From Erysipelotrichaceae bacterium MTC7 (GTDB taxonomy: Bacteria > Bacillota_I > Bacilli_A > Erysipelotrichales > Erysipelotrichaceae): a stretch of DNA of 32,000 bases. The notes beneath the pieces were generated by a model. It saw only the letters and a program-made list of their open reading frames with translations. It had not been told where the DNA came from and did not search any database. Location: the NCBI GenBank assembly GCA_001695645.1, contig LVZN01000034.1, positions 1 to 32,000 of the forward strand, given 5' to 3'. How positions within the stretch are numbered: the first letter of the stretch is position 1; each line of letters opens with the position of its first letter. Of the stretch, positions 1,996 through 21,819 are shown piece by piece. A program made the position numbers and the translations under genes.

Positions 1996-1996
1996 A

Positions 1997-2410: not shown

Positions 2411-2458
2411 AAATTAAAAAATGGAGCATTCCGTAAAGGGCTGCTCCATTAATTTTTT
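2411..2458. terminator. Bidirectional hairpin terminator downstream of the RhuM operon
   Basis: AATGGAGC (2420-2427) pairs with GCTCCATT (2443-2450). An A-run lies on the left and T6 on the right, so a U-tract follows the hairpin on either strand. Confidence 0.6.
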
Positions 2459-2530
2459 CGTAAGTGTCCGTACACTTACTGTGCTTGCTATTAAAGCTAT
2501 TAAAGTTATAAGCGTTAAGCGTATATTAAG

Positions 2531-4088: not shown

Positions 4089-4096
4089 AGAGTCTC

Positions 4097-4645
4097 CTAA
4101 TAATAATCATCATGTTCAGGGCGATAGTTTTTGAGAAAATCTCCCTGAGGTATATTAACATTAACTGGTTTATTAAACTTGCCCATTTTTGCTAACTCAG
4201 AAATTTTTAGATTTAGTAAATTTATATCTACACCTAACTTTCCAGCAATTTCATAATCACAAACTTGATCATTGATATTATCGAAGACATCTTCATCACT
4301 TATTAATAAATGAGCTGCAAAAATATTAGCTTCAGTTTCAAATTTATTTGTAGGGTTTAGCACTGTTTGGTCATGAAAAGCTCCACCACTCATGCAATAA
4401 TCTCTGTGAAGTTGATCGTGACCTAATTCGTGTGCTAATATAGTCTTTCTATTAAAATTTGTGTTGCTACTGATAAAAATAAATCTGTTTCTTTGAATAT
4501 AATGGTACATTCCTAAAAGTATTTTTGTTTCAGGTAGATATACCAGGTTAATATTCAAAGCTTCTATTAATTCGATAGGATCTCGTGTCTTATATTTTTT
4601 TATAAGTCGATTAACCTTATCATATATATAGCGATTCATGCTCAT
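4097..4645 (-). CDS. ImmA/IrrE-family (M78) metallopeptidase
   Basis: HEXXH motif (AHELGHDQLH) with a downstream E (ETEANIFAAHLL). RBS AGGTGA. It lies 8 nt downstream of the XRE gene, the canonical ImmR/ImmA arrangement. Confidence 0.85.
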   Translation of the reverse strand: MSMNRYIYDKVNRLIKKYKTRDPIELIEALNINLVYLPETKILLGMYHYIQRNRFIFISSNTNFNRKTILAHELGHDQLHRDYCMSGGAFHDQTVLNPTNKFETEANIFAAHLLISDEDVFDNINDQVCDYEIAGKLGVDINLLNLKISELAKMGKFNKPVNVNIPQGDFLKNYRPEHDDYY

Positions 4646-4653
4646 AAAATCAC

Positions 4654-5055
4654 CTAATCTTTTTTCTTACGACCATATTTCTTATTTTCTCTTTTAGCCT
4701 CCCAATAAGCACGAGTAATAGCTTCAAAAGCAGCATCTTTATCTTCGTCAGAAATTTCTCCACCAGCAAATAAAGAGCTTAGACCTTCTGTTAATGCTCT
4801 AGCTTTTTCTAATTCTCTTTTGCCACCCATGTTATAAACTCGATTTAAAAACTCATCACTTTCTTCTAGAAGATAATTGTAATCACAGTCCATAACTTCA
4901 GCTATTTTTTTGTAAACCTCGACATCTCTTGGGTATCTTTCTCCGTCTTCATAATGTACAAGAGTTCTTGTACTTATTCCTATCATTTTTGCAAAATCTG
5001 CTTGACTTAATTTTTCTTTTTCACGAAATTCCTTTAATCTATCCGCAAAAGCCAT
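4654..5055 (-). CDS. XRE-family HTH transcriptional regulator (ImmR-like)
   Basis: HTH LSQADFAKMIGISTRTLVHYEDGERYP. RBS AGGAGG. Confidence 0.85.
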   Translation of the reverse strand: MAFADRLKEFREKEKLSQADFAKMIGISTRTLVHYEDGERYPRDVEVYKKIAEVMDCDYNYLLEESDEFLNRVYNMGGKRELEKARALTEGLSSLFAGGEISDEDKDAAFEAITRAYWEAKRENKKYGRKKKD

Positions 5056-5111
5056 AACTTTAACCTCCTGTACTAATGTGCATTTATAACTTTTAATACG
5101 AACAATAGTGC

Positions 5112-5187
5112 TTGAATTATTTTTCTGTTTGAGATATAATACAAACTGAACTTATATTCATATTATAGCACAAACATTCAAGTTTGT
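5112..5187. promoter_or_regulatory. Candidate control region: sigma-A-like promoters on both strands plus a palindromic operator
   Basis: On the + strand: TTGAAT (5112-5117), 17 nt, TATAAT (5135-5140). On the - strand: an extended -10, TGcTATAAT (complement of 5162-5170). Palindrome ACAAAC-N6-GTTTGT at 5170-5187, with another ACAAAC at 5141-5146. Promoter calls in AT-rich DNA are tentative. Confidence 0.4.
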
Positions 5188-5204
5188 AAATAAGTTGTAT
5201 TGGG

Positions 5205-5765
5205 GTGATTAGATTGAGAATAAGTAAAACTTTAAAGAATATAATGAACATGTATGCAGATAGCAACTTGAAATTTGAAGAAATTAGTTCAGCTGCAAAA
5301 CTTATTTTAAGTTTATATAGACAAGTTACCTGGGCAGTAGATAGTAGGGCAAATTTTATGATGTTTGAGAGTAAAGAAAACTATGGATCAACTTCAGAAT
5401 CTGCTTACTTGTATCTTTCTACATTTGCTCCAGAAAAAGTTGAAGAAAAGTTTAATAATAGAGTTTCCAATGTAATGGATAGTAAGCTTATGCTTTTAAT
5501 AATTTATGATGCCTGTGTTAGGCTAAAAGTTTATCCAGAGTATGGAGAAATCTATCATAAGATTATTTATAACTACTACATTTCTGAAAAGAAGATTACT
5601 GATGAAGCTTGTATGAGAAGTGTGTCTTTAGAGAGAACTGTTTATTATCAAAGAAAAAAGGAAGCAATTGCATTGGTTGGTGTAATAATTTGGGGATATA
5701 CTTTACCGACTGCTATTAGCCAACTTGAAGACGGTCGTAACATTGAAGAAATAATGAACATCTAA
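5205..5765 (+). CDS. Hypothetical protein, possible HTH/sigma-region-4-like regulator
   Basis: Long ORF diverging from the XRE operon. The C-terminus (SLERTVYYQRKKEAIALVGVIIWG) resembles the C-terminal HTH of ArpU/DUF1492-type regulators, weakly. The start is uncertain (GTG 5205 or ATG 5244). Confidence 0.55.
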   Translation: MIRLRISKTLKNIMNMYADSNLKFEEISSAAKLILSLYRQVTWAVDSRANFMMFESKENYGSTSESAYLYLSTFAPEKVEEKFNNRVSNVMDSKLMLLIIYDACVRLKVYPEYGEIYHKIIYNYYISEKKITDEACMRSVSLERTVYYQRKKEAIALVGVIIWGYTLPTAISQLEDGRNIEEIMNI

Positions 5766-6034
5766 GAAATTAATTTGTGACGAACTTATTGCGTACTATT
5801 TCCGAATGAAAAAAGTACCATATACGAATTTTATGTGTACTTAAGTGCATATATAATATCCATGATGGGTGATTTGCACCTAAATTTAATATTGGCATTT
5901 ATTGGCTGAAAGAATTTATTTTCTTTCGGTCTTTTTTTATGCCCAGGAGAATATATGCATAGAATTAGAAGCCCTCCTTGTGTGAATTTTATTTTCAAAC
6001 TAAAGAAATTCATGTCAACAAGGAGGAAAAATTA

Positions 6035-6445
6035 ATGGACAAAGAATATTATTTATTTGTAGAAGGAAAGAAAATAGTTGTTAGCAAGGAAGTATATCTT
6101 GCCTATCATAGTGAATTGAATAAAGAGAAATATCAAATAAGAAGAGACAGGTTAAATAACTGTTTCTTTTTTTGTTCCTATGATCACGATGGAAACTTCG
6201 AAGAAAATTTAGAAGATCTGGAATTTGATGTTGAAAAAATTATCGAAACAAAGGAAATGATTGAAGAAGTAAGAAGAGCTATTTCTAAACTCAATCCTGC
6301 TGAAAGAGACCTAATAGAAAGCCTCTTTTATAAAGAAAAAACAATTAGAGAAGTAGCTGCCAAACTCAATATATCTCATCCAGCCGTTATTAAAAGGCGT
6401 AATAAAGTCTTAGAGAAACTAAAGGAAATGTTAGAAGACTTTTAG
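6035..6445 (+). CDS. Small sigma-70 region-4-type protein (sigma-like transcription regulator)
   Basis: RBS AGGAGG (6021-6026) precedes the ATG at 6035. The C-terminus LNPAERDLIESLFYKEKTIREVAAKLNISHPAVIKRRNKVLEKLKEML is a region-4 HTH. The N-terminus KEYYLFVEGKKIVVSKEVYLAYHSELNKEKYQIRRD is typical of small sigma-like proteins of clostridial mobile elements. Confidence 0.75.
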   Translation: MDKEYYLFVEGKKIVVSKEVYLAYHSELNKEKYQIRRDRLNNCFFFCSYDHDGNFEENLEDLEFDVEKIIETKEMIEEVRRAISKLNPAERDLIESLFYKEKTIREVAAKLNISHPAVIKRRNKVLEKLKEMLEDF

Positions 6446-7175: not shown

Positions 7176-8930
7176 ATGAATACTAAAGTAAAATTAATAA
7201 AAGCTTCAAATACTGGAGCAAGAAATAGAAATGCACTACATTTAGATTTAAAACGAGTTGCAGCGTATTGTAGAGTAAGTACAGATAGTAAAGACCAACT
7301 TGAATCATATAAATCGCAAGTTGATTATTATACAAATCTAATAAAAAATAATAAAAACTGGACTTTGGCTGGTATATATGCAGATGAAGCAACAACAGGA
7401 ACAACTGCAACTAAAAGAGCTGATTTTATGAGACTAATTAGTGATTGTCAAAATGGAGATATAGACATGATAATTACTAAATCTATATCAAGATTTGCTA
7501 GAAATACATTAGATACCTTAAAATATGTAAGACTACTCAAGGAAAATAACGTTGGTGTAGTATTTGAAGAAGAAAATATAGATACTTTGACAATGGATGG
7601 AGAGCTATTATTAACAATATTAAGTTCAGTAGCTCAACAAGAAGTAGAAAATACCTCAGCCCATGTAAAAAAAGGACTGAAAATGAAAATGGAAAAAGGG
7701 GAGCTTATTGGTTTTCAAGGTTGCCTTGGATATGATTATGACCCTATAACAAAAAGCATCTCTATAAATGAAGAAGAAGCCAAAATTGTTAGATATATCT
7801 TTAAAAGATATTTAGAAGGCAATGGTGGTTCGGTCATTGGTAGGGAACTAGAAGAACAAGGATATCTCACCCCTAGAGGTAAAACAAAATGGTCTGATAC
7901 TACAGTGTTAGGAATAATTAAAAATGAAAAGTATATTGGCGACATACTAATGGGAAAAACTTTTACAGTTGATCCCATAACAAAAAGAAGACTAGCAAAC
8001 TTTGGTGAATCTGATAAATACCACATTGAAAATCATCACGAGCCAATTATATCAAAAGAAGATTTTGAAAAGGCACAAGAGATTAGACTCAGAAGAGCAC
8101 AAAACAGAAACACTATTGCTAACAAGGATAGAAAAAGAGAAAAACTATCAAGGCAATATGCTTTTTCAAGTATGCTGGAATGTGGATTTTGTGGCGAAAT
8201 ACTGTCAAGAAGAACTTGGCACACTAGTTCAATTTACAAAAAAATTAACTGGCAATGTGTAAGGTCAACAAAAAAAGGTAAAAAATATTGCCCTCATTCA
8301 AAGGGAATACAAGAAGCGGCAATAGAAAAAGCTTTTGTTGAAAGCTATAGGCAATTATGCCATGCAGATTCAACAGTAATAGATGACTTTTTAAAAATTG
8401 TTGAAGAAGAAATAAATGATAATACTTTAGTCAAGGATCTGAAAAAGATAGAAAGTCAATTAAATAGAATCATTAGTCAAGAAAGAAAGTTAGTTGATCT
8501 TCATTTGGAAGATAGTATAGACGAAGTAGTTTATGCTAAAAAGTATAAAAAACTGACAAAACAAAAAGAAGAATTACTCGATGAAAAGAAAACGCTGGAA
8601 CTAACGATAAAAGATGAAAACTCTATTAAAGAAAGATTAAAGCAATTTAAAAAGGTGTTAGAGAATAGAGAAATTATAGAGGAATTTAACAGAACAGTAT
8701 TTGAAAGCATAGTTGATAAAGTCGTGGTGGGAAGAATTGACAAAGACGGAACAGTTCATCCTTATGACTTAACATTCTATTTCAAAACAGGAGTTAAAGA
8801 TAGTCAAGATTCTAATAACTTTAAAGATAAAAGAAAAAATGCCAAAGACAATGACATTAATAAATTGTGTTCCCACAAGAATGACGAGGATAAAAAATTA
8901 TGTTCCCAATCAAAAGACAACGCACGTTGA
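7176..8930 (+). CDS. Large serine recombinase (TnpX/TndX/phage-integrase class)
   Basis: RBS GGAAGGAGG. The resolvase catalytic domain (VAAYCRVSTDSKDQLESYKSQ, ITKSISRFARNTLD) is followed by a recombinase domain, a Cys-rich zinc ribbon (CGFCGEILSRR...WQCV...KYCPHS) and a long coiled-coil tail. Confidence 0.92.
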   Translation: MNTKVKLIKASNTGARNRNALHLDLKRVAAYCRVSTDSKDQLESYKSQVDYYTNLIKNNKNWTLAGIYADEATTGTTATKRADFMRLISDCQNGDIDMIITKSISRFARNTLDTLKYVRLLKENNVGVVFEEENIDTLTMDGELLLTILSSVAQQEVENTSAHVKKGLKMKMEKGELIGFQGCLGYDYDPITKSISINEEEAKIVRYIFKRYLEGNGGSVIGRELEEQGYLTPRGKTKWSDTTVLGIIKNEKYIGDILMGKTFTVDPITKRRLANFGESDKYHIENHHEPIISKEDFEKAQEIRLRRAQNRNTIANKDRKREKLSRQYAFSSMLECGFCGEILSRRTWHTSSIYKKINWQCVRSTKKGKKYCPHSKGIQEAAIEKAFVESYRQLCHADSTVIDDFLKIVEEEINDNTLVKDLKKIESQLNRIISQERKLVDLHLEDSIDEVVYAKKYKKLTKQKEELLDEKKTLELTIKDENSIKERLKQFKKVLENREIIEEFNRTVFESIVDKVVVGRIDKDGTVHPYDLTFYFKTGVKDSQDSNNFKDKRKNAKDNDINKLCSHKNDEDKKLCSQSKDNAR

Positions 8931-8990
8931 GTGCGTGACATTGATGTCAAGGGTTGAGAAATAGGAGAGCTCAAAATACTGATAAATAAA

Positions 8991-9066
8991 GGGTTTTCAA
9001 GGTTGGATGATTTTCTGCCTGATGTCTGGCAGTGCCTTTTAACCTTGGAAATCCTTATTTTTGTTT
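8991..9066 (+). terminator. Compound hairpin terminator after the recombinase gene
   Basis: The outer stem 8991-9004 / 9041-9054 has 14 pairs including 2 G-U. The inner stem is CTGCC (9015-9019) / GGCAG (9028-9032). TTATTTTTGTTT follows. Confidence 0.7.
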
Positions 9067-9102
9067 ATGAGGAAATAGGTCAACTGTAAAAAATGTGTGT
9101 AG

Positions 9103-9154
9103 GGTTGAGTTGACAGATTAGATTTTTTATAGAGGTTGAGTAGACAGGATAGAT
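9103..9154 (+). repeat. 21-bp imperfect direct repeat (18/21)
   Basis: GGTTGAGTTGACAGATTAGAT (9103-9123) and GGTTGAGTAGACAGGATAGAT (9134-9154). A third GGTTGAG occurs at 8952. Confidence 0.8.
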
Positions 9155-9247
9155 AATTAGAATGTCACTTACTATTTATGGAAGAAAGATAGTGAAGCAG
9201 AAATGATAATATTATCCATGGTACCACAATTTTACAGAGAACACGAT

Positions 9248-9329
9248 TGTAGGAAATTATCCTAATAATGTAGGAACAATGATTTACTTTGTGGGAATTG
9301 AGTGGTATAATTATTATTTGTGATAGAAT
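9248..9329 (+). promoter_or_regulatory. Candidate promoter and C-box-like region of the R-M operon
   Basis: TGTAGGAA is repeated at 9248-9255 and 9269-9276, 21 bp apart. The palindrome TAGGA-AATTA-TCCTA lies nearby. Extended -10 candidates are TGgTATAAT (9303-9311) and TGaTAGAAT (9321-9329). Confidence 0.4.
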
Positions 9330-9354
9330 GCTGGTTAAGTTAGGGAGTGAAGAA

Positions 9355-9579
9355 ATGCAAGTAAGTTATAAAAAGTTATGGAAACTATTAATTGATCGCG
9401 ATATGCGAAAGCAAGATTTGAAAGAGAAAGCAGGTATAAGCAAAGGAACAATAACAAAGCTTGGAAAAAATCAAAATGTTTCTACGGAGACACTTGCAAA
9501 AATCTGCGCAGCATTAGAATGCAATATTGAGGATATTGTAGAATTTTCGACAGAAGAACAGAGGGACAATAATGTATAG
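9355..9579 (+). CDS. XRE-family HTH protein, likely controller (C) protein of the R-M operon
   Basis: RBS GGGAG precedes the ATG at 9355. The 74-aa protein MQVSYKKLWKLLIDRDMRKQDLKEKAGISKGTITKLGKNQNVSTETLAKICAALECNIEDIVEF is a Cro/C1-type HTH. Its stop overlaps the start of MTase 1. Confidence 0.8.
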   Translation: MQVSYKKLWKLLIDRDMRKQDLKEKAGISKGTITKLGKNQNVSTETLAKICAALECNIEDIVEFSTEEQRDNNV

Positions 9580-10852
9580 AGAGTTAGAGCAAAAATTCAA
9601 AGTTATATATCCAGAAAGTGAAAATGCAACATATTCTAGTTTGTTAAACTATTCTGATGATTTAAATAGGCCTAGACAAAGATGGTATAGGTATAAAGAA
9701 GGTTTTTCACTGGAGCTAGTAAGGAAATTGATAAATGAATATAACAAAAATAAAAATGGTACAATAATGGATCCATTTCTCGGCAGCGGAAGTACAATTA
9801 TAGCTGCTAATCAATTAGGACTTAATGGCATTGGATTTGAAGTGAATCCATTTTCATATTTTCTTTCAAAATGTAAACTACGTAATTACAGTGCCGAGAT
9901 TGCTTTGGAGTTTAAAAATGCATCACAAGAAGTATTAAGTGTTAAGTATGAGCGAGAATATAAGTTACCGGCATTATCCATAAGTCAAAACGTATTTAAT
10001 TCTGATGTAGAAAATTATTTAATGAATGTTAAAGCAAACATATTAGAGGGGAAATATAGCGATGAAGTTAAAAACTTGCTGATTTTGGGATGGATTTCAA
10101 GTATTGAACCATTATCAAACTATCGAAAAGGCGGAAATGGATTAAAGAAACGAAAGTATGTAAAGCCACGTATCATTACTGTAAGTGATGCGAGGAGTGA
10201 ACTACTTACTTTCTATACTAATATATTCGATGATATTACTTCTAATGATATAACATTTAAGGCACAAATTTTTAACGACTCATGCTTGAATTCGAGGGAA
10301 TATGTAGAAGATGGGTCAGTTAGTGGAATTATTTTTTCACCACCTTATGCAAATTGTTTTGATTATACAGAAATATATAAATTAGAGCTATGGTTTGGAG
10401 GATTTGTTAATTCATATGAGGATCTAAGAAAACTGAGAAAAAAATCACTACGGTCTCATTTAAATGGTGAATTGAGTTTAGAAAATGTTGATACAACAAA
10501 GATATCTAAATCAACTCAAGAGTTACTTGATTCTTTAGCAACAAAAAAATTATGGGATAAGAGAATTCCTTTGATGCTTCAATTGTACTACCTCGATATG
10601 TTTAAGGTAATAGATCAGAGTTATGCTGCACTTGAAGATAATGGGTTTTGTGCCATTGTTGTAGGTAATTCTTCTTATGGTGGAGTTGTATTTCCGACAG
10701 ATTTAATCTTAGCAGAATATGCTCAAAAAATTGGGTTTAAAGTAGATAAGATTGAAGTTGATAGATACATTATCACCAGTTCCCAACAGTACGAATCTAC
10801 TAAAGAATATGGTAAATATTTAAGGGAGAGTGTTGTATGTCTAAAAAAATAA
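9572..10852 (+). CDS. DNA amino-methyltransferase 1 (N4-cytosine or N6-adenine; SPPY type)
   Basis: DPFLGSGST at aa 67-75 (AdoMet binding), FSPPYANCFDY with SPPY at aa 256-259 (catalytic motif IV), and C-terminal IVVGNSSYGG. Confidence 0.88.
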   Translation: MYRELEQKFKVIYPESENATYSSLLNYSDDLNRPRQRWYRYKEGFSLELVRKLINEYNKNKNGTIMDPFLGSGSTIIAANQLGLNGIGFEVNPFSYFLSKCKLRNYSAEIALEFKNASQEVLSVKYEREYKLPALSISQNVFNSDVENYLMNVKANILEGKYSDEVKNLLILGWISSIEPLSNYRKGGNGLKKRKYVKPRIITVSDARSELLTFYTNIFDDITSNDITFKAQIFNDSCLNSREYVEDGSVSGIIFSPPYANCFDYTEIYKLELWFGGFVNSYEDLRKLRKKSLRSHLNGELSLENVDTTKISKSTQELLDSLATKKLWDKRIPLMLQLYYLDMFKVIDQSYAALEDNGFCAIVVGNSSYGGVVFPTDLILAEYAQKIGFKVDKIEVDRYIITSSQQYESTKEYGKYLRESVVCLKK

Positions 10853-12108
10853 ATAATCACATCATTGTTGAAAGTCTACCAAAGGATATAGAGTTTGGAG
10901 GGTCATACATAATTGCTCAATCTAATCCAAACACATATACACATTCATTCTTTAAATATCCATGCCGCTTTATTCCAGAGATTCCAAGATGGGCTATTCA
11001 AAAATATTTAACTGGAGTTCAAAATGGTTCTGTTTTTGACCCGTTTGCAGGTAGCGGTACTACGCTATTAGAAAGTGTTATTAATGATTTTGAGGCTTAT
11101 GGAACTGAGATTGATAATATTGCAAAATTGATCATTAAAGTAAAAACTACTCCTTTTACTAAAGATAAGTTAGATGAAATAGCTAATGAATTTAATAGGA
11201 TTATTACAAACATAGATACAAGCCAAAAACCTCAAAGACTTCCTGGCATTAATAATTTAAACCATTGGTTCACGGAAGATGCAATTGTAAAATTATCCGG
11301 AATTAAAATGAACATCGATAGCATTGATGACAAAGATATCCGTGACTTTTTCAAAGTATGTTTTGTTTCAATAATTAAAAGAGTATCAAATGCTGATGAT
11401 GTTTCTCCCAAACCATATGTGTCCAATAAAGTTATAAAGAACCCGCCAGAGACTATCAAAGAGTTTTCGTCTACATTTACTAAATACTTTGAAGGAATAA
11501 AAGAACTTAGTAATCTTGGACTGGCAAAAAAGGCTCGCATTATAAACGGGGATGCTTTGAATTTTGAGTTTGATGGTTTATATGATTTGGCAGTTACGTC
11601 GCCACCATATATAAATGCATTTGATTATGCCCGGACAATGAGATTGGAAAACCTTTGGTTGGATACTATGACTGAAAACGAGTTGAGGGAGAAAAAGAAA
11701 GATTATGTAGGTACCGAATCAATTAAGGTTGCAGAAGAGGAAAAAAACCTCGAAATTTTGGAGAAAAGTATAATTCTTAAATCATATTACAATCAAATTT
11801 TTGAAAAGGACAAAAAAAGAGCGCTGATTGTTAAAAAGTTCTTTGAAGATATGGAAGGTAACCTCAAGAATACTTATAAATACCTAAAGCCGGGTGGTCA
11901 TTATATGATAGTAATTGGGAACAGCTCAATACGTAAGGTGGAAGTTGAAAGCTGGAAGGTTATCCAACAACTCTCGGAACTTGTTGGGTTTAAAACCGAA
12001 ACCTATTTTAATTATTTAATCCAAAACCCTTATATAAGAATACCGAGAAAAAATAAGGGAGGAAAAATTAATGTAGATCATGTATTAGTTCTTAAAAAGG
12101 AGGGATAA
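10837..12108 (+). CDS. DNA amino-methyltransferase 2 (paralog of MTase 1; SPPY type)
   Basis: DPFAGSGTT at aa 68-76, TSPPYINAFDY with SPPY at aa 255-258, and IVIGNSSIRK. The motif order and spacing match MTase 1. It overlaps MTase 1 by 16 nt and has RBS AAGGGAGAG. Confidence 0.88.
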   Translation: MSKKINNHIIVESLPKDIEFGGSYIIAQSNPNTYTHSFFKYPCRFIPEIPRWAIQKYLTGVQNGSVFDPFAGSGTTLLESVINDFEAYGTEIDNIAKLIIKVKTTPFTKDKLDEIANEFNRIITNIDTSQKPQRLPGINNLNHWFTEDAIVKLSGIKMNIDSIDDKDIRDFFKVCFVSIIKRVSNADDVSPKPYVSNKVIKNPPETIKEFSSTFTKYFEGIKELSNLGLAKKARIINGDALNFEFDGLYDLAVTSPPYINAFDYARTMRLENLWLDTMTENELREKKKDYVGTESIKVAEEEKNLEILEKSIILKSYYNQIFEKDKKRALIVKKFFEDMEGNLKNTYKYLKPGGHYMIVIGNSSIRKVEVESWKVIQQLSELVGFKTETYFNYLIQNPYIRIPRKNKGGKINVDHVLVLKKEG

Positions 12109-12110
12109 GC

Positions 12111-12884
12111 TTGAACCTATCTGGATGGAAATATGAAGGCAGAATTATCAGTGATAATTTACAACATCAGATTATGGAAATAATCAAAATATTGAATGCC
12201 CCTGAGAAGGTTCAGAATAGAACATGGGGTGGGAGTTTACAGAAATTTATTGGTAACCAAATAGGAATCTCTGATGGACAAGTTCGGACCATAAAAAGAA
12301 TGATGGAAGAGTTTGATATATTAAAACCTGGTGCATTAAATCGACGGACAGTACCAGATAAATCAAATATTTATTCTGAAAATGGGGAGGTTCTTATAAG
12401 GTTATTTGAAAGCGAAGAACTTTTGAAACAAAAGCCTTCCAAGGATTCTTATGAACAGATAGAGAGAATTAAAGAAATATATAAATTATTCTATTTGAAA
12501 ATTTTAGTAAAATACACTATAAGAGATAAGGATGGTAATGAGTTTCATCCTGCAGTTATTCTATTAAAAGCTTTGAAAAAGTATGAATATTTAACTTACT
12601 GGGAGTGGTATCTACTTAATACAATAATTACTTCAGATAACAATCCTGAGGAAGAACAGGAGTTTGATAAATATATTACCGACATTAGGAATGGGGCATT
12701 AAAAGCTTCTGACTTAAAGATTACGGAAAATGTATTATCACATTCTTATATTTTGGGAAACTTCGCATATGTGGGATTAATCAAAGTTGAAGGTAAAAAA
12801 GAAAATATGAAGATCACAATTAACGAAAAAAACAAACATATAATTGATGAGATTCTAAGAGAATGGGGGTCAGATGATGAGTAA
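12111..12884 (+). CDS. 257-aa protein of unknown function; inferred target-recognition or restriction subunit
   Basis: A TTG start is preceded by the strong RBS AAAAAGGAGGGA. It lies 2 nt after the MTase 2 stop and overlaps the McrB-like gene by 11 nt. I see no recognisable catalytic motif. The functional call rests on operon position only. Confidence 0.7.
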   Translation: MNLSGWKYEGRIISDNLQHQIMEIIKILNAPEKVQNRTWGGSLQKFIGNQIGISDGQVRTIKRMMEEFDILKPGALNRRTVPDKSNIYSENGEVLIRLFESEELLKQKPSKDSYEQIERIKEIYKLFYLKILVKYTIRDKDGNEFHPAVILLKALKKYEYLTYWEWYLLNTIITSDNNPEEEQEFDKYITDIRNGALKASDLKITENVLSHSYILGNFAYVGLIKVEGKKENMKITINEKNKHIIDEILREWGSDDE

Positions 12885-13953
12885 TAATTTTGATGAATCA
12901 ATTGATAGTAAGATTGACGAAAATATTAAGGCTATTATGGAAAAACGTAATATTAAATCTTCAGATAACGAGCCGCCAGGAAATACCGACTTTCACGGGA
13001 GAAATATATTACTTTACGGCGTTCCTGGTAGTGGAAAAAGTTTTACAATAAAAAAAGAGTATTGTGATGATGAGAATAGACTAGAACGTTTAGTTTTTCA
13101 TCCTGATTATACATACTCAGATTTTGTAGGACAAATACTACCTGATGTTTCAGATGGAATCGTAAACTATAAATTTAAACCAGGTCCTTTTACAAGACTG
13201 CTAAAAAGAGCATACGAAAACCCTACTACTGAATTTTTTCTTATAATTGAAGAAATTAATAGGGGTAATGCACCTGCTATATTCGGAGAAATCTTTCAAT
13301 TACTTGACAGGGATGAAACAGGTGCAAGTGAATATGGTATTTCAAATACTGATATAGCTAAAGTTGTATATGGTGATGAGACGCGAAAAGTGCGTATCCC
13401 ATCAAATCTAAACATAATAGGTACTATGAATACTTCTGATCAAAATGTTTTCACGCTAGATACCGCGTTTCAACGTAGATGGGAAATGCGTATGATAGAG
13501 AATAATTTTGATAAAGCGGATGCGGAATTTGCAAATCATCCAATTTTGGACACAACTGTAACATGGAAAACTTTTTGCACAGAAATTAACAAAATAATAC
13601 TTGATAAAAATGTAAGAATGACATCATCTGAGGATAAACGATTAGGGGTATACTTTGTCCATTTGAGTGATCTGATTTATGATGAAAATGCTGATAACCC
13701 TAATCTTAGTGAAAAAGAGCGTATTAAAGCTAAACAAAACAACAGTCGTTTCCCAGAAAAAGTATTAAAATATCTTTGGGACGATGCTTTTAAATTTTCC
13801 CGTGAAGATATTTTTGAGGTGAGCCAGTATAACAGTTTAGAAGCTGTAGTCGCAAAATTTTCAAGCGAGAAAAAAAATGACCGATTTAAAGTTTTTAAAG
13901 AAAATGTATATGATGCATTTGTTTCTCCTAATGCTGATGGACAAAATGATTAA
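12874..13953 (+). CDS. McrB-like AAA+ GTPase restriction subunit (no N-terminal DNA-binding domain)
   Basis: Walker A GVPGSGKS at aa 49-56, Walker B LIIEEINRGN, McrB signature IGTMNTSD (NTxD replacing NKxD), and LDTAFQRRW. Confidence 0.88.
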   Translation: MMSNNFDESIDSKIDENIKAIMEKRNIKSSDNEPPGNTDFHGRNILLYGVPGSGKSFTIKKEYCDDENRLERLVFHPDYTYSDFVGQILPDVSDGIVNYKFKPGPFTRLLKRAYENPTTEFFLIIEEINRGNAPAIFGEIFQLLDRDETGASEYGISNTDIAKVVYGDETRKVRIPSNLNIIGTMNTSDQNVFTLDTAFQRRWEMRMIENNFDKADAEFANHPILDTTVTWKTFCTEINKIILDKNVRMTSSEDKRLGVYFVHLSDLIYDENADNPNLSEKERIKAKQNNSRFPEKVLKYLWDDAFKFSREDIFEVSQYNSLEAVVAKFSSEKKNDRFKVFKENVYDAFVSPNADGQND

Positions 13954-13968
13954 AGGTGGTGACTCAAC

Positions 13969-15233
13969 ATGGTAATAGACTCTGAAATACGTAAACGCTG
14001 CCGTGTAAATACAAATGAAGAGGGAGATCGCTTTGTCGGTATTAAGGCTGATTCTGATGATGTAGTAGTCTATTTCCCTGTTGGTTATCATCTTCCAGAG
14101 AATGAAATAGATGTTAAACGTGATATACTTCATTTGTTTCAAGTGTTGGCTGAGTTTACTGATAGCTCTGACCGAGTGCTTGCTATGAATAAGTTTGAGG
14201 CCCCACAATCAGTCGACTTTCCTATTAATGCTTATCTAGAGGTTATATATTATTTTATGGAGAAGAACGGTTACTATATGGAAACTGAACCTGTATATAA
14301 AACAAGAGACCGTGGAAATATTGACTGGGCAAAAACTATACAAAGGCAAAAGGCATTGATACAGTCTAACTTTTCACCAGTGTATACACAATATACTGTT
14401 CGAGAATCAACTCCGAATGAGAATAAGTTAATAACCCATATACACAGACATTGTGTATATGAAAGTTTTTCAAAACTAGGATGGCTATTTACTCCATATA
14501 TGCCTGAACCACCACAAATACCCCTTGACATTAAGCGCTTTATAATTGCATTAAATGACAAGTTGGCAACTACATATAACGATAAGGATAAAAAATTATT
14601 TAGATCTATGAAGGCAATGCTAGAATATATGGATGAAAAGCCATCAGTAAAACAGTTCTATTTTGGAACTGATTATTTTGAGAATGTTTGGGAAAAGCTG
14701 ATAGATCGTGTGTTTGGAATCAAAAACAAGAAGGATTATTTTCCTAGAACAAGATGGCGTTTGCGAAAAGGTAAACACAAAGAAAAATACCCTCTAGAAC
14801 CGGATAGTATAATGCACATAACGATAAGATATATGTGTTAGATGCAAAGTACTATAGATACGGCGTTTCAGGCAATCCAGATCATTTACCGGATTCATCA
14901 TCGATTAACAAGCAGATAACATACGGCGAGTATATACAAAGACAGTTAAACTTACCGAATGAGTCTTTATATAATGCTTTTATTATGCCATATAATGCTG
15001 CGAAAAATTACTTCGGTTTTACTACTCCATTTGGTAATATTGGTGAGGCGGTTGGTGATTGGAAGGGAGATACCTATTATTACGAAAGAATTCAAGGAAT
15101 TGTTGTAGATACTCGGTATCTAATGTATCATTACACGGGAAATTCAAAAAAAAGCATAATAGCATTAGCAGAATCTATAGAAAAAGCTTTAGTTGAGAAT
15201 AATGGTTTTCTTCCTCAGCCAAGTTCAGAATAA
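13969..15233 (+). pseudogene. LlaJI/McrC-type PD-(D/E)xK restriction endonuclease subunit, frameshifted
   Basis: ORF 13969-14841 (...DYFENVWEKLIDRVFG...YPLEPDSIMH...) and ORF 14835-15233 (VLDAKYYRYG...) are two halves of one nuclease. In the second frame the sequence upstream reads NDKIYVLDAKYY back to a stop at 14805-14807. The shift therefore lies within 14808-14838, between PD and D-A-K. Confidence 0.8.
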
Positions 15234-15238
15234 ATTGT

Positions 15239-15282
15239 AATACCTCTGTCATAGCATCATATCTATGAACAGAGGTATTTTC
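15239..15282. terminator. Bidirectional terminator between convergent genes
   Basis: AATACCTCTGT (15239-15249) pairs with ACAGAGGTATT (15269-15279) around a 19-nt loop. T-rich sequence follows on the + strand. Confidence 0.75.
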
Positions 15283-16478
15283 TATTGTTGGCTTTCCTTT
15301 TTACGTTTTCGGTAATTTCTTTGAGCAGTGGCGTTTCCACATTCCGGGCAACAATATTTATTCCTTGTGGATGTCGTCTTTACTAAGAAATATTGATTGC
15401 AGTTTGGGTTTGCACATAGTCTATATAATTCTAATCCGGGTTTCATATAAAAAATTGAAAAGTAGATTGCTCCCATAAGCGAATCTACACGCCATGATGG
15501 TGACATAGTTGCGACATTGTACTGTGGATGAATACCATTTAAGTTTTCATTGATTTCTTCACCAATAATTAATCGAGCAATATCAATAAGAGCATTTTTC
15601 ATGTGGTCATTGAACTTTGTCTTGTCTGGTTGCGAGTAATATTGAATACCGTTTTCATAATCAAAGGATTTAATAATCCCTACCTCATATTGATAATGAA
15701 ATAAAAAATCTGTAATTAGTCGAATAGAATGGTCAGCATTTGGCTTATTACAGTAGAGATTAACCACTGCCTTAAATCGTTTGCTATCAGAACCAGGTTT
15801 AGATGTCATATAGCCACCCATGATATCATTATAGTCATTTATGTCCAGTTCATATGTCGGTTGATAAATGGTGTCTGTGATTGTATATGTATCCTTATCA
15901 AAAGCCTCCTGCCCTCTGTCTACTATTTGTAGATAGGGGGCATTTTCTATTTCATCATAAAATGGATGTCTGCAAGTAGTGTAAGGCTCTCTCAGACTCA
16001 TCACATTAATTGAAACAGGATCTGAAAGTAGTAGATATAAAGTTAAATGCAATATATCTTGATAGTTTTTTCTAGGTTCTTCAATTGCGCTCATTAATCT
16101 AACTGTTGCTTTAATTCGATAGACTAATTCTAACATTGTATGAGCATCTACAGATTCATATTCACAATCACTGATGGGAAATAAAAAGCCATTCTTTTTG
16201 AAAAAGTCAAAAAGCACATCAATATTCCCATTTGGTAAAGAAATCAATGACGATAGAATATTTTTCTCTTCTATAGATCCTGTGCTTGCCAATCTTAAGA
16301 GACCTTCCTTTGCAGCGAAAGCAAAGCGAATCCTTTTTGTTGGCAGGCTTTGTAATTTAAGCGTCGTTATCGGTTCGACTCCAGGAGCAATATGTTCTAT
16401 ATCTTTTACACAGTCACAAGAATAGCTTTCATATCTAAATAAATTATTTTCAAAAAAATCTTCCCTATTTGTCTCCAT
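15282..16478 (-). CDS. 398-aa protein of unknown function with a C-terminal CGNR-type zinc ribbon
   Basis: RBS GAGG lies 7-8 nt upstream. The C-terminus CANPNCNQYFLVKTTSTRNKYCCPECGNATAQRNYRKRKK fits the C-x2-C...C-x2-CGN + basic tail pattern of zf-CGNR. The N-terminal ~350 aa have no motif I recognise (possibly a DUF6076-like family, from memory). Confidence 0.8.
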   Translation of the reverse strand: METNREDFFENNLFRYESYSCDCVKDIEHIAPGVEPITTLKLQSLPTKRIRFAFAAKEGLLRLASTGSIEEKNILSSLISLPNGNIDVLFDFFKKNGFLFPISDCEYESVDAHTMLELVYRIKATVRLMSAIEEPRKNYQDILHLTLYLLLSDPVSINVMSLREPYTTCRHPFYDEIENAPYLQIVDRGQEAFDKDTYTITDTIYQPTYELDINDYNDIMGGYMTSKPGSDSKRFKAVVNLYCNKPNADHSIRLITDFLFHYQYEVGIIKSFDYENGIQYYSQPDKTKFNDHMKNALIDIARLIIGEEINENLNGIHPQYNVATMSPSWRVDSLMGAIYFSIFYMKPGLELYRLCANPNCNQYFLVKTTSTRNKYCCPECGNATAQRNYRKRKKESQQ

Positions 16479-16934
16479 AACTTAAACCTCATTTATATGA
16501 AATGTAATTATAAAAATAATATTTAGTAAAATTATCCAGAAGTAATAACTAAAAATATAATATAAAAAAATTATATCATTAAAAAGTAACTTTAACAATA
16601 ATGTCAAGCTGAAATTTTTGGTAAAGTAATACGAATTTTATCAAATTTACTTACTATTTAAAGGGCAATACAATAATTACAGACGGCGGACAAGTTCTTC
16701 GTAAGTAGCAAAATTCGATTGCTTCCCGTCTACAAAAAAATATCGAATGCCTGATTTGCAATAAGGGCAGAGGATACATATTGTTTCGCTCCAATCCGTA
16801 AGGATTGTTGCGGTGCAATAGAAGTACCTTACCTTATTGCGCTCATTTTCAGGATAAAAAGGTCTGTGTACTTCTGGTACAGGCCTATTTTTGTATCCTT
16901 TGCCGCCAATGCAATCCGGCGGAAAGGATGCAAA

Positions 16935-17468
16935 ATGAAAATTAGAATTCAGCACGAAAACAAATCTATCTATCTGGAGGTACCAGACGAGGACTTCACC
17001 TTAATGATTGAGGCGGATTATGAGGACAGGCTATCTTCTGCAGAGGACAAAGAAACCGTGACCCGGCGCTCTCCACAGGAGATAATGGACGAACGTTTCA
17101 ACAAGCCGGAATACAATAACTGGCACAAATTTGACAGACACAGAGGTATGCCAAAGAAACCATTCCGCAAGGATGACCAAGAGGTTGATGAAACCGACCA
17201 TATGGACTACTTCCCTGACTACTCAGTTGAAATGACTAGAGAGAAAAAAGAAGAGTATGAGCATATCTGTGAAATTATTCGCAAGGCTCTCAAGGAAAAA
17301 CAAGCGGAGCTACTGATTGCTATAGTCTTGGATGGTGTTTCGGTAACAGAGTATGCAGAACGTGAGGGGGTAAGTGTAAGTGCCATTTCCCACCGTTTAG
17401 ATACAGCTAAAAAGAATTTCAAAAAAATATATCCCAAATCCTCAACTTTCCCCTCTTGCCATGGCTAA
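16935..17468 (+). CDS. Sigma-70 region-4-type HTH protein (phage early regulator)
   Basis: The start is moved to the ATG at 16935 (RBS AAAGGA). The C-terminus KQAELLIAIVLDGVSVTEYAEREGVSVSAISHRLDTAKKNFKKI is a region-4-like HTH. Confidence 0.7.
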   Translation: MKIRIQHENKSIYLEVPDEDFTLMIEADYEDRLSSAEDKETVTRRSPQEIMDERFNKPEYNNWHKFDRHRGMPKKPFRKDDQEVDETDHMDYFPDYSVEMTREKKEEYEHICEIIRKALKEKQAELLIAIVLDGVSVTEYAEREGVSVSAISHRLDTAKKNFKKIYPKSSTFPSCHG

Positions 17469-17479
17469 TAGTTAGAGGG
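17436..17479 (+). promoter_or_regulatory. Bipartite conserved element, copy A: AAATCCTCAAC-N15-TGGCTAATAGTTAGAGGG
   Basis: It matches copy B (21740-21783) with identical 15-nt spacing. It lies 35 nt upstream of the next start codon. Confidence 0.5.
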
Positions 17480-17513
17480 CAGCACATAGACGCTCTCGGA
17501 AAGAGGTGAATAC

Positions 17514-17732
17514 ATGAAGCACAACTTGAAAATCAGTGTTTCAAAAAAACCACAGTCTGGCGGGATTGTTTCCTGTCGAAACGTCACCATTAGGGAGCGT
17601 TTCCTTCGTTTCTTACTTGGTGATAAGCAGAAACTGACCATCCTTGTTCCGGGTGACACCGTACAGGAACTCGCCATCAGTGAGATTAAGGAAGGAGGAA
17701 TAAGCCATGAGCAAGATCAAGCTACTCCTTGA
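17514..17732 (+). CDS. Small phage protein, unknown function
   Basis: RBS AAGAGGTG. It is a 72-aa ORF in operon context. Confidence 0.65.
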   Translation: MKHNLKISVSKKPQSGGIVSCRNVTIRERFLRFLLGDKQKLTILVPGDTVQELAISEIKEGGISHEQDQATP

Positions 17733-18030
17733 TGTGGTTTCCGATATGCGCTCTTTGGCAGACAGCATACAAGCGGTTGCTGATGTAATGGTGGGCAATG
17801 AACCTGTCGAAACAAAAGAACCGACTACAACTGTAAAAGAGCCTGAACCAAATAAAAAGGAAATCACTCTGGAAGAAGTCAGAGCAAAACTCGCTGAAAA
17901 GAGTCAAGCCGGTCTTACTGCCCAAGTAAGAGAAATAATTCAAAAATACGGTGGCTCTAAATTAAGCGAAGTGGACCCAAAACATTATGCAGATATGTTA
18001 AAAGATGCGGAGGTACTTGGGAATGAGTGA
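17707..18030 (+). CDS. Small phage protein, unknown function
   Basis: RBS GGAGGA. The 107-aa protein has an acidic/Pro-Thr linker. Its stop overlaps the next gene's start (ATGAGTGA). Confidence 0.7.
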   Translation: MSKIKLLLDVVSDMRSLADSIQAVADVMVGNEPVETKEPTTTVKEPEPNKKEITLEEVRAKLAEKSQAGLTAQVREIIQKYGGSKLSEVDPKHYADMLKDAEVLGNE

Positions 18031-19171
18031 TCATGCAGTTCTTTCCGCATCAGGCGCCCATAGGTGGCTGAATTGCCTTCCGTCTGCACGATTGGAACTG
18101 GAGTTTGTAAATAACGAATCCAGTGCAGCCGCTGAAGGCACCGCCGCCCATGCTCTCTGCGAACATAAACTTAAAAAAGCACTTCACATGAGAAGTAAGC
18201 GTCCTGTCTCAGTTTATAACTCCGATGAGATGGAAGAACACAGTGATGCCTATGTGGAATTTGTAATGGAACAGCTTGAGCTGGCAAAGCAGAGCTGCAC
18301 AGACCCTTTAATACTAATCGAACAGCGTCTTGATTTTTCTTGCTATGTTCCACAGGGATTTGGAACCGGTGACTGCATCATTATTGCCGATAAGAAACTT
18401 CACATTATCGATTTCAAGTATGGCATGGGAGTATTGGTAGATGCGGTGGACAATCCACAGATGAAGTTGTACGCACTGGGTGCTTTAGAAATTTACGATA
18501 GTTTGTACGACATCGAGGAAGTTTCCATGACCATTTTCCAGCCACGCAGAGAGAATGTCAGCACATGGACAATACGGGTAGAGGATCTGAAAGATTGGGC
18601 AGAAAAAGAACTAAAACCAAGGGCTAAAAAAGCTTATGACGGTGAAGGTGAATATCTTCCGGGTGAGTGGTGTACTTTCTGTCGAGCGGCAGCTAAATGC
18701 CGTGCTAGGGCCGAGGAAAAACTGAAATTGGCACAATCGGAATTCAAGCTACCCCCACTACTTACGGACTCTGAAATCGAGGAAGTTCTATCTAAACTGT
18801 CCGACCTTACGAAATGGGCAAATGAAATCATTGCATATGCCACCGATGCAGCTGTTAATCACGGGAAAGAGTGGCATGGTTTTAAGGTTGTTGAGGGCAG
18901 ATCTGTCCGCAAATACAAGGATGAAGATGCTGTGGCTGAAGTAGCCAAAGCAAACGGTTATAAAGATATCTTTCGTCAGAGTCTCATCACTCTTACGGAA
19001 ATGGAAAGGCTGATGGGCAAATCAAAATTTGAGAAGATACTCGGTGATCTTATATACAAGCCACCGGGAAAGCCGACTCTGGTCCCGCTATCGGATAAGC
19101 GTCCGGCTATGAACGTATCAAACGCAAAAAACGAATTTAACGAAATAACGGAGGAATGTGAATATGAATAA
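18023..19171 (+). CDS. DUF2800-family PD-(D/E)XK (Cas4-like) nuclease
   Basis: MSDHAVLSASGAHRWLNCLPS...AAEGTAAHALCEHKL, IIDFKYG, and the C-terminal Cys cluster CTFCRAAAKCRA. The start is set at the ATG at 18023. Confidence 0.85.
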   Translation: MSDHAVLSASGAHRWLNCLPSARLELEFVNNESSAAAEGTAAHALCEHKLKKALHMRSKRPVSVYNSDEMEEHSDAYVEFVMEQLELAKQSCTDPLILIEQRLDFSCYVPQGFGTGDCIIIADKKLHIIDFKYGMGVLVDAVDNPQMKLYALGALEIYDSLYDIEEVSMTIFQPRRENVSTWTIRVEDLKDWAEKELKPRAKKAYDGEGEYLPGEWCTFCRAAAKCRARAEEKLKLAQSEFKLPPLLTDSEIEEVLSKLSDLTKWANEIIAYATDAAVNHGKEWHGFKVVEGRSVRKYKDEDAVAEVAKANGYKDIFRQSLITLTEMERLMGKSKFEKILGDLIYKPPGKPTLVPLSDKRPAMNVSNAKNEFNEITEECEYE

Positions 19172-19712
19172 TAAAAACAGAACGAAGGTTATTACTGGTG
19201 TAAACACACGTCTCAGCTACTTTCATGGATGGGAACCGGTATCCATCAATGGTGGGGCAGAAAAGTATAGTGTATCGGTATTGATTCCTAAATCGGATAA
19301 GGAAACCATTAATGCCATCAATGCAGCAGTTGATGCGGCTATTGAAGAGGGCATTGCAAAGTTTGGCGGTAAAAAACCAAATAAGGCTGCTATCAAGCTA
19401 CCACTTCGAGATGGTGATGTAGAACGAGATGATGAGGCTTATAAAGGACATTATTTCGTAAATGCCAACAGCACTACTCCGCCTCAGATTGTAGATAAAA
19501 CAGTCAAGCCCATTCTGGATCGCAACGAGGTATACAGTGGTTGCTATGCAAGAGTGTCACTTAATTTCTATGCTTTCAATTCTAACGGTAACAAGGGTGT
19601 GGCCTGTGGACTTGGTAACATCCAAAAGATTAGAGATGGAGAGCCTTTAGGTAGCAGAACCACAGCGGCTGATGATTTCACCACAATTGAAGATGATGAT
19701 TTCCTAGCATAA
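19164..19712 (+). CDS. DUF2815-family protein (phage ssDNA-binding-like)
   Basis: TKVITGVNTRLSYFHGWEPVS...KYSVSVLIPKSDKETINAINAAV is the conserved family N-terminus. The ATG at 19164 lies 8 nt after GGAGGA. The track start at 19158 is a GTG too close to the RBS. Confidence 0.8.
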   Translation: MNNKNRTKVITGVNTRLSYFHGWEPVSINGGAEKYSVSVLIPKSDKETINAINAAVDAAIEEGIAKFGGKKPNKAAIKLPLRDGDVERDDEAYKGHYFVNANSTTPPQIVDKTVKPILDRNEVYSGCYARVSLNFYAFNSNGNKGVACGLGNIQKIRDGEPLGSRTTAADDFTTIEDDDFLA

Positions 19713-19729
19713 CAGCTAAAGTATGAATA

Positions 19730-19770
19730 CAAACGGGGTGGTGGAAGTTGTTCTTCTGCTACCTCGTTTG
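19730..19770 (+). other. 18-bp RNA hairpin upstream of the DNA polymerase gene
   Basis: CAAACGGGGTGGTGGAAG (19730-19747) pairs fully with CTTCTGCTACCTCGTTTG (19753-19770) around a 5-nt loop. Four of the pairs are G-U, so the structure works only for the + strand RNA. No U-tract follows. Confidence 0.6.
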
Positions 19771-19791
19771 CATTGGAAAGGGCGGTAATAC

Positions 19792-21726: not shown

Positions 21727-21739
21727 ATATATTTTTTCA

Positions 21740-21783
21740 AAATCCTCAACATTCATTACCTCCTGTGGCTATTAGGTAGAGGG
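21740..21783 (+). promoter_or_regulatory. Bipartite conserved element, copy B: AAATCCTCAAC-N15-TGGCTATTAGGTAGAGGG
   Basis: Box 1 is identical to copy A, box 2 matches 16/18, and the spacing is the same. It lies 37 nt upstream of the antirepressor start. Confidence 0.5.
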
Positions 21784-21819
21784 GTTTCCTCTCTGACTAT
21801 ATTACAGGAGGTAATTCGT

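Follow-up and report, generated by a model that had tools for sequence, protein, structure and literature searches.

A split-reader variant of the LlaJI/LlaI/BsuMI restriction-modification group, probably blocked by modification, at the left end of a prophage in Erysipelotrichaceae bacterium MTC7

What kind of system is formed when two DNA methyltransferases (MTases) share an operon with a three-part McrBC-like complex, and would such a complex act on unmodified rather than modified DNA? We addressed this question in a 32,000-nt stretch of DNA from Erysipelotrichaceae bacterium MTC7 (assembly GCA_001695645.1, contig LVZN01000034.1, positions 1 to 32,000; hereafter the window), in which six co-directional reading frames lie on the + strand at 9289-15233. 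We consider it likely that this operon encodes a modification-blocked, nucleoside triphosphate (NTP)-dependent restriction-modification (R-M) system of the LlaJI/LlaI/BsuMI ("non-canonical McrBC") kind, which a temperate phage carries as cargo at its left end. The identities of the genes, their homologies, the fused or split relation of the reader R1 and the motor, and the predicted fold of R1 are directly supported; the strand assignment, the asymmetry of the site, the methylated base, the blocking by methylation, the nucleotide preference and the role of the controller we infer. The system is a variant within the known LlaJI/LlaI/BsuMI group, whose system class, operon logic and prophage location are already documented. 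A preliminary description of the locus therefore overstated its novelty; the finding itself is real and was well described.

Six tightly packed genes form one operon

Analysis of the open reading frames (ORFs) of the window revealed a tightly packed array whose successive junctions, read 5' to 3', are an overlap of 8 nt, an overlap of 16 nt, a gap of 2 nt, an overlap of 11 nt and a gap of 15 nt. The genes are as follows:

9289-9579, + strand: controller ORF, 96 aa, open from TTG 9289
9355-9579, + strand: controller-like helix-turn-helix (HTH) protein (C), 74 aa from ATG 9355; its stop overlaps the M1 start by 8 nt
9572-10852, + strand: M1, alpha-class amino-MTase, 426 aa
10837-12108, + strand: M2, alpha-class amino-MTase, 423 aa
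12111-12884, + strand: R1, probable specificity subunit, 257 aa, predicted tandem winged helix
12874-13953, + strand: R2, McrB-type AAA+ motor, 359 aa, without a DNA-binding domain
13969-15233, + strand: R3, LlaJI-type PD-(D/E)xK nuclease (RE_LlaJI), a pseudogene here, with ORFs 13969-14841 (290 aa) and 14835-15233 (132 aa)

These coordinates agree with the junctions and the single-operon reading of the preliminary description. Its start at 9248 does not coincide with any gene boundary, as translation of the controller most likely begins at ATG 9355, which is preceded by a GGGAG ribosome-binding site, rather than at TTG 9289. Profile searches bore out its component calls (HTH protein, two amino-MTases, McrB-type motor and LlaJI-type nuclease), and PADLOC filed the four enzymes under type II MTase and restriction endonuclease (REase) models with E-values from 1e-117 to 1e-145. 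The 359-aa motor is found without a single change in 34 blocks of a public collection, and loci L003-L010, L016 and L017 contain the complete operon; this recurrence in many contigs shows that the operon genes are real rather than chance ORFs.

The motor and nuclease are close orthologues of those of LlaJI

R2 has the full set of McrB-type catalytic motifs, namely a P-loop (GVPGSGKS at residue 49), a Walker B segment (IIEEINRGN, with EEINRG at 126) and the McrB consensus loop (MNTSD at 185). It is assigned to AAA_5 in Pfam, matches the McrB equivalog of NCBIfam (E 1e-21) and the McrB structures 6HZ4 and 6UT6 (E 4.5e-22), and aligns with positions 264-578 of the 585 positions of PADLOC model PDLC03547. 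Its identity to residues 264-567 of R1.LlaJI, the AAA+ half of that protein, reaches 62.5%, with pNP40 as the closest plasmid match by tblastn; identity to LlaI.R2 is 40%. For R3, the RE_LlaJI profile (PF09563) matched both fragments (E 5.7e-23 and 2e-4), as did PADLOC model PDLC03549 the protein, while a search of PDB sequences returned zero matches. Over the full length of the protein, the intact 421-aa form of R3 shares 58% of its residues with R2.LlaJI, EPD279 and D292-A-K294 among them, and its identity to LlaI.R3 is only 21%. The McrBC/LlaJI homology that had been proposed for 12111-15233 was thus found in R2 and R3, and it upholds the assignment of the locus to the LlaJI/BsuMI family.

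In the window, R3 is interrupted. Alignment with loci L003, L008 and L016 bore out the frameshift suspected earlier and located it as the deletion of a single T after 14815 (GCTAC to GCAC, no homopolymer). This deletion separates P278-D279 (D279 codon 14803-14805) from D292-A-K294 (14841-14849), and therefore neither R3 fragment has a complete active site. C, M1, M2, R1 and R2 keep their full length. Restriction is probably dead in this copy, while modification should persist. Such a state invites the alternative that the locus in this genome is a decaying cassette, in which orphan MTases serve for epigenetic marking or shield prophage DNA from related systems beside dead restriction genes, and the LlaI copy on pUCCL629C is comparably decayed (fragmented methylase gene, disrupted llaIC-like frame). 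We give this alternative a chance only a little short of even. It is countered by the finding that the deletion is the sole disabling difference: relative to L003, L008 and L016 there are 3-4 differences in 1266 nt, which makes the deletion either very recent or a sequencing or assembly error, and all other copies examined (L003-L010, L016 and L017) encode an intact 421-aa R3, the near-identical copies that are undamaged numbering more than 30. The deletion in R3 may accordingly be a recent inactivating mutation or an error in the sequence, and in either case decay bears on the state of this copy, not on the nature of the system.

M1 and M2 are distant paralogues of the alpha class

Both MTases are alpha-class amino-MTases, with motif I DPFLGSGST at residue 67 and motif IV SPPY at 256 in M1, and DPFAGSGTT at 68 and SPPY at 255 in M2. 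Their Pfam N6_N4_Mtase scores (53.9 bits for M1, 43.7 bits for M2) exceed the gathering cut-off of 26.7, and both match type II MTase profiles of PADLOC over their full length (M1 to PDLC03224, E 2e-118; M2 to PDLC03362, E 5e-145). The motifs and the N6_N4_Mtase class thus stand as first described; the two proteins are, however, only 24% identical, and therefore distant paralogues rather than twins. Throughout related loci, M2 is invariably paired with M1, and the pair co-occurs with R1 across Clostridia, Lachnospiraceae and a Methanobrevibacter metagenome-assembled genome.

Similarity of M1 or M2 to M1.LlaJI or M2.LlaJI was not found, and a search of PDB sequences with M2 gave zero matches. 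Relatives of the pair in the PDB and on plasmids are distant (32% identity or less), carry generic names and are too remote to fix the methylated base. SPPY as motif IV favours N4-cytosine over N6-adenine, and on the strength of this motif and textbook knowledge N4-cytosine is the more likely product of M1 and M2.

R1 is the probable DNA-reading subunit

The preliminary description had left the 257-aa R1 as an unknown protein; fused relatives and the predicted fold now make it assignable as the probable DNA-sequence-reading (specificity) subunit. Profiles of Pfam, NCBIfam and PADLOC gave zero matches to R1. Its homologues form 87 clusters at 90% identity, reaching down to 39% identity, and are mostly stand-alone proteins of ~250 aa, the shorter entries being fragment-like. 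An R1 profile run against 1.84 billion representatives retrieved only 52 proteins, all of the R1 family, which argues against a close relatedness to YdiR (BsuMI.R1). The same profile found nothing among PDB sequences even at E 10, tblastn of R1 against phages gave zero matches, and comparison of R1 with the fused N-domain of the closest motor relative (Clostridium botulinum, L028) found nothing.

Three fused R1 relatives are present among the representatives. P0100 (654 aa) joins an R1 domain (residues 1-230) to an AAA+ domain 61% identical to R2 of the window, P0088 joins R1 to a canonical McrB adjoining a PF10117 McrC, and P0089 is a fused relative of 490 aa. R2 of the window starts 42 residues ahead of its P-loop, and its N-terminal tail can be aligned with the linker that joins the two domains of P0088. 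In every McrB homologue the N-terminal position is that of a DNA-binding domain (bioRxiv 10.64898/2026.08.31.748284). Moreover, R1 consistently lies between the MTases and the McrB-type motor in loci with that operon arrangement.

The AlphaFold model of R1 (predicted local distance difference test, pLDDT, 91.4) is mostly helical and contains tandem winged helices. A Foldseek search of the PDB with this model put entries of the type IIS nickase Nt.BspD6I in the first six places (probability 1.0, best E 5.8e-4) and winged-helix regulators after them. When we modelled a stand-alone homologue of the N-domain of R1.LlaJI (pLDDT 76.7), its matches were led by the recognition domain of BpuJI, with the same Nt.BspD6I entries next, so that both models find their best structural matches among FokI-like tandem winged-helix recognition domains. 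R1 differs from these type IIS enzymes in having no cleavage domain and no significant sequence similarity to them. The predicted fold would tie the way in which LlaJI-type systems find asymmetric sites to FokI/BspD6I-like readers.

R1-like readers were also found in other company. The product of a 261-aa stand-alone ORF in a C5-MTase cassette (L070) is distantly homologous to R1 (hhalign E 1.8e-4, 225 columns), and in Pseudobutyrivibrio ruminis and Agathobacter R1, M1 and M2 precede a canonical McrB and McrC. In P. ruminis, the gene directly after the M1-M2-R1-McrB-McrC cluster encodes an AlwI-family type IIS REase (L015, 4923-6674). The N-terminal region of this protein shows a weak match to the C-terminal half of R1 (hhalign E 0.017, 110 columns), and both restriction activities may share one MTase pair and one site there. 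Nt.BspD6I is itself, we take it, a member of the AlwI family. In two further loci (L020 and L024) the R1 gene itself is split.

A proposed mechanism and its alternatives

In the mechanism that we propose, a single promoter upstream of the HTH controller would drive all six genes. M1 would modify one strand of a short asymmetric site and M2, presumably, the other, and the free-standing R1 would read the same site when it is unmethylated, methylation blocking being the expected mode, and dock onto an AAA+ hexamer of R2. The motor would hydrolyse NTP, translocate DNA and carry R3, whose PD-(D/E)xK centre would cut, by analogy with LlaJI. LlaJI restricts unmethylated DNA, with its R1 as the sole specificity determinant and its R2 carrying the PD...D/ExK centre (PMC1459862). 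As to the fuel, the motor had been described as GTP-driven; an McrB-type NTPase motor is indeed present, but GTP specificity is not to be assumed, because the split R2 motors of LlaI and BsuMI hydrolyse GTP, ATP, XTP and ITP alike (bioRxiv 10.64898/2026.08.31.748284).

Several points weigh against this mechanism. The recognition site, the methylated base and the strand assignment of the variant are argued from sequence and by analogy, as the regulatory role of the HTH protein is from position and homology, and the direct repeats that make up its candidate operator (see below) may have arisen by chance. In LlaJI, on which the analogy draws, cleavage and GTPase activity were never reconstituted in vitro (PMC1459862). 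Foldseek TM-scores between the R1 model and Nt.BspD6I are modest (~0.5). Comparisons of R1 with the R1.LlaJI N-domain were not significant (BLASTP E 0.057; hhalign against the single sequence E 0.028; profile-profile E 0.25), and we therefore claim only a common structural class for the two, not homology. BLASTP of R1 against LlaI.R1 gave E 5.4, the L011 copy of the latter being annotated with 252 aa as compared with 329 aa in the paper. Finally, L021, L023 and L013 (Lachnospiraceae genomes; one large assembly) encode R1, McrB and McrC with no MTase within 9 kb, as a free R1 with canonical McrB/McrC among housekeeping genes in L021 and L023 and as a fused R1-McrB in L013. R1 is therefore not always in a linked R-M context; the MTases of these triads may lie elsewhere, or the triads may have a different mode of action, and they are the main loose end for the idea that R1 reads unmethylated DNA.

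These MTase-less triads, together with the reading of modified bases by canonical McrB N-domains (bioRxiv 10.64898/2026.08.31.748284), also speak for an alternative in which R1-R2-R3 acts as a Type IV, McrBC-like nuclease that depends on modification and has the two MTases as mere neighbours, with R1 reading a foreign modification. We regard this as improbable, given that all six genes of the window overlap or abut in one operon, that M1, M2 and R1 travel as a set in locus classes A and B, that the closest characterised relative, LlaJI, is methylation-blocked rather than methylation-dependent, and that the reader fold resembles type IIS recognition domains that read unmodified asymmetric sites. 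More improbable still is that R1 and R2 are one R1.LlaJI-like gene split by a frameshift instead of parts of a true three-gene system: although their ORFs overlap by 11 nt and sum to 616 aa (585 aa in R1.LlaJI), and fused relatives are known, the 87 R1 clusters, which extend to 39% identity, consist almost entirely of separate proteins of ~250 aa, R1 and R2 of Clostridium beijerinckii are separated by a 14-nt gap, and the junction varies among other lineages. On these homologue lengths and differing junctions we reject a frameshifted single gene and take the split to be ancestral in the clade.

The variant combines known parts of the LlaJI, LlaI and BsuMI systems

With the operon read as a modification-blocked R-M system, we compared it with characterised relatives. 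LlaJI of pNP40 shares with the window two MTase genes placed upstream in the same orientation and the logic of an asymmetric site, unmethylated DNA being what LlaJI restricts (PMC1459862). The window also has its nuclease type (PF09563 with PD...(D/E)xK, the centre being split by the frameshift) and, in R2, its motor type (P-loop, Walker B and MNT(S/A)D loop). It differs in three respects. In LlaJI, each strand of GACGC/GCGTC has a C5-cytosine MTase of its own, whereas both MTases of the window are alpha-class N6_N4_Mtase proteins with SPPY; the specificity domain of LlaJI is fused to the motor (585 aa), whereas R2 has 359 aa and the reader is a separate 257-aa gene; and pNP40 has neither an HTH gene nor a zf-CGNR neighbour at LlaJI, whereas the window has both.

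Two-gene and three-gene restriction cassettes were contrasted already in 2006 (PMC1459862), and the window has all components of the latter: a separate R1, an R2 that lacks a DNA-binding domain, a PD-(D/E)xK R3 and MTases. LlaI and BsuMI (ydiR-ydiS-ydjA) share this layout of a separate DNA-binding R1, an AAA+ R2 without an N-terminal domain and a PD-(D/E)xK R3. LlaI of pTR2030 comprises the controller LlaI.C, a methyltransferase, a DNA-binding R1, a McrB-like R2 and a McrC-like R3 (bioRxiv 10.64898/2026.08.31.748284), and like the window it has a controller and an amino-MTase within the operon. A small LlaI.C-like HTH protein heads the operon of the window too, as its controller shares 40% identity across 48 aa (E 2.6e-10) with the llaIC-like ORF directly upstream of the LlaI methylase in L011, a methylase annotated as adenine methylase. 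M.LlaI is one polypeptide with two FokI-like adenine-MTase domains. Homology of R1 to LlaI.R1 was not found, and the folds differ: LlaI.R1 is a two-domain, ERCC4-like alpha/beta protein with a seven-stranded sheet, whereas R1 of the window is predicted to be a tandem winged helix. BsuMI differs in having C5 MTases in a separate operon, whereas the amino-MTases of the window lie within it. On the LlaI copy mentioned above (L011, 3935-6000; pUCCL629C, a pTR2030-like plasmid), only fragments are left of the llaIC-like frame and of the adenine methylase gene, and R2 and R3 are annotated as intact.

The architectural novelty claimed in the preliminary description does not survive this comparison, because only LlaJI and BsuMI had been considered there, while LlaI already combines a controller and an amino-MTase with a three-part McrBC-like complex.

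Canonical McrBC (Escherichia coli, T. gammatolerans) has the AAA+ catalytic motifs and the pairing of a motor with a PD-(D/E)xK nuclease in common with the window. It is modification-dependent, lacks a cognate MTase, has a fused DNA-binding domain and uses a PF10117 McrC, in contrast to the two translationally coupled MTases and the RE_LlaJI nuclease found here, and the operon does not have the make-up of a canonical Type IV system. The SpyI-type cassettes of Phi1207.3, Phi10394.4, Phim46.1 and Ca. Heliusvirales combine C5 MTases, or a mixed beta-amino and C5 set, with a fused reader-motor of 555-660 aa, as opposed to the alpha-class pair and split reader of the window.

R1 would then probably be a third structurally distinct detached reader beside LlaI.R1 and BsuMI.R1. 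Structural work on LlaI and BsuMI did not arrive at a structure of the R1-R2 complexes, nor at a model of BsuMI.R1. Since the model of R1 is confident (pLDDT 91) and the protein is small and separate, the variant could help to understand how DNA is held on McrBC-type motors. No current understanding is overturned by these results.

MTases and reader vary before a conserved motor-nuclease pair

To place the variant, we took a census of 78 IMG/VR loci that encode a LlaJI-type nuclease, with the following counts:

beta-class amino-MTase plus C5 MTase: 23 of 78 loci
two C5 MTases: 24 of 78 loci
gamma-class N6 MTase plus D12-class N6 MTase: 8 of 78 loci
alpha-class pair plus R1 (the variant of the window): 1 of 78 loci (L094)
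short motor (405 aa or less): 5 of 78 loci
convergent zf-CGNR gene within 400 nt downstream: 71 of 78 loci

An amino-MTase is present in at least 32 of the 78 viral cassettes, and HTH_26 controllers recur among LlaJI-type cassettes. The amino-MTases and HTH controller that had been put forward as distinguishing marks are thus both common in natural LlaJI-type cassettes, and what is rare is the detached R1 with an alpha-class pair. A separate 261-aa ORF accompanies the motor in three of the five short-motor loci (homology to R1 tested in L070), and we found no experimental work in the literature on the variant with a split reader and alpha-class MTases. MTase chemistry and reader are, on this census, swapped freely before a conserved motor-nuclease pair in a very widespread lineage of gut prophages.

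The most constant companion is the zf-CGNR gene, which in the window lies convergent with the operon:

15282-16478, - strand: zf-CGNR protein, 398 aa, with a C-terminal CGNR zinc finger

The protein matches Pfam zf-CGNR (E 8e-7) and phrog_30403. Neighbours of this kind were found whatever the MTase chemistry, in C. beijerinckii, C. botulinum and gut cassettes. Relative to L028, L014 and L025, identity is 66, 58 and 49% for the zf-CGNR protein, 72, 60 and 60% for the motor, and 73, 65 and 57% for the nuclease; by this measure of sequence, the zf-CGNR protein diverges in step with motor and nuclease. The homologues lie at 9336-10559 in L014, 7001-8185 in L025 and 7001-8218 in L028. That the gene is a mere part of the prophage backbone was considered and is not supported, as it also flanks LlaJI-type cassettes outside recognisable prophages. 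Our search of the literature found nothing on a function of zf-CGNR in this setting, the protein being listed only in the annotation of Phi1207.3 (PMC4260502).

We tentatively suggest, while leaning slightly towards doubt, that LlaJI-type cassettes in Firmicutes prophages consist of a conserved backbone (motor, nuclease and convergent zf-CGNR) and an exchangeable specificity unit (an MTase pair and a FokI/BspD6I-like reader, fused or free). If this is true, zf-CGNR would have a function in these systems that has so far gone unnoticed, perhaps as a regulator or sensor, and the free R1 would be a portable reader able to arm canonical McrBC motors as well.

A putative controller with a candidate promoter and operator

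The controller matches HTH_26 in Pfam (E 7e-21) and is VanU-like over residues 23-89 in NCBIfam. It is also 33% identical to the HTH_26 gene at the head of a C5-type LlaJI cassette. Two features precede it:

9283-9311, + strand: promoter-like site, TTTACT-17 nt-TATAAT with a TG extended -10, 10 of 12 consensus matches
9248-9255 and 9269-9276, + strand: two 8-nt direct repeats TGTAGGAA, 21 nt apart, just upstream of the -35 hexamer and abutting it

The site at 9283-9311 is the sole strong promoter candidate on the + strand ahead of the operon, and it is argued from its position only, because the number of consensus matches in the region equals that expected from shuffled sequence. When we looked for a C-box arrangement, we found the two direct repeats beside the promoter-like site, together with a weak match of the controller to the PADLOC Control_protein model (E 0.003). 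The repeats are a weak and speculative candidate for the operator of the HTH protein.

The cassette is prophage cargo that has probably spread recently across hosts

The operon and its zf-CGNR companion lie within a block that differs from the adjoining phage genes in GC content:

8917-16935: low-GC cassette block between an attachment-site junction (left) and the replication module of the prophage (right; GC ~42%)

GC content is ~31-35% in this block and ~40-45% across the phage replication and packaging genes at 16935-32000. The block is shared at ~99% with contigs that include Clostridium brassicae ZC22-4, and at 89% with Ligilactobacillus agilis DSM 20509; in both of these strains the operon is intact. 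As the contigs sharing it at 99% have host flanks of 26%, 30% and 39% GC, the block appears to have spread recently across hosts. Megablast of the operon against plasmids and phages gave zero matches.

In the sharing loci, the block begins right after a TRAM/U5 RNA methyltransferase gene. In the window, it begins where the gene of a 584-aa large serine recombinase (7176-8930) ends, and the junction at ~8917 looks like an attP-type junction, from an excised or circularly assembled phage, or like a second element in tandem at the same site. As part of the reading given at the outset, a gene for an RNA uracil-methyltransferase (rum/rlmD-like) is likely to be the neighbour beside which the phage integrates. 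Prophages with SpyI-type cassettes use a serine recombinase for integration, and for Phim46.1 the target is the rum gene (PMC4260502).

Downstream, the phage module encodes a DUF2800 nuclease, single-strand-binding protein, DNA polymerase A, Ant, primase-helicase, SNF2 helicase, small terminase and ParB-MTase. This backbone matches that of Streptococcus pyogenes Phi1207.3, Phi10394.4 and Phim46.1 and of Ca. Heliusvirales gut phages, in which one or more MTases, AAA_5, RE_LlaJI and CGNR are followed by DNA polymerase A, primase and SNF2 helicase; in Phi1207.3 the order is M.SpyI, AAA_5 protein, LlaJI-type nuclease, CGNR zinc-finger protein and then polymerase A (PMC4260502). The cassette thus occupies the left end of a Phim46.1/Heliusvirales-like prophage.

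Two other regions of the window deserve mention. Further DNA methyltransferase genes lie at 28936-31429, including a ParB-domain MTase fusion (phrog_498), and presumably serve self-protection against host restriction independently of the operon studied here. At the other end, positions 1-6445 (GC ~30%) contain an ORF for a truncated MobA/VirD2 relaxase domain (1432-2004), a RhuM-family gene (2531-3625), an ImmA/IrrE peptidase with an HTH partner (4097-5055) and a sigma-70 region-4 protein (5978-6445), a gene content that fits an integrative mobilisable element or a lysogeny/moron region.

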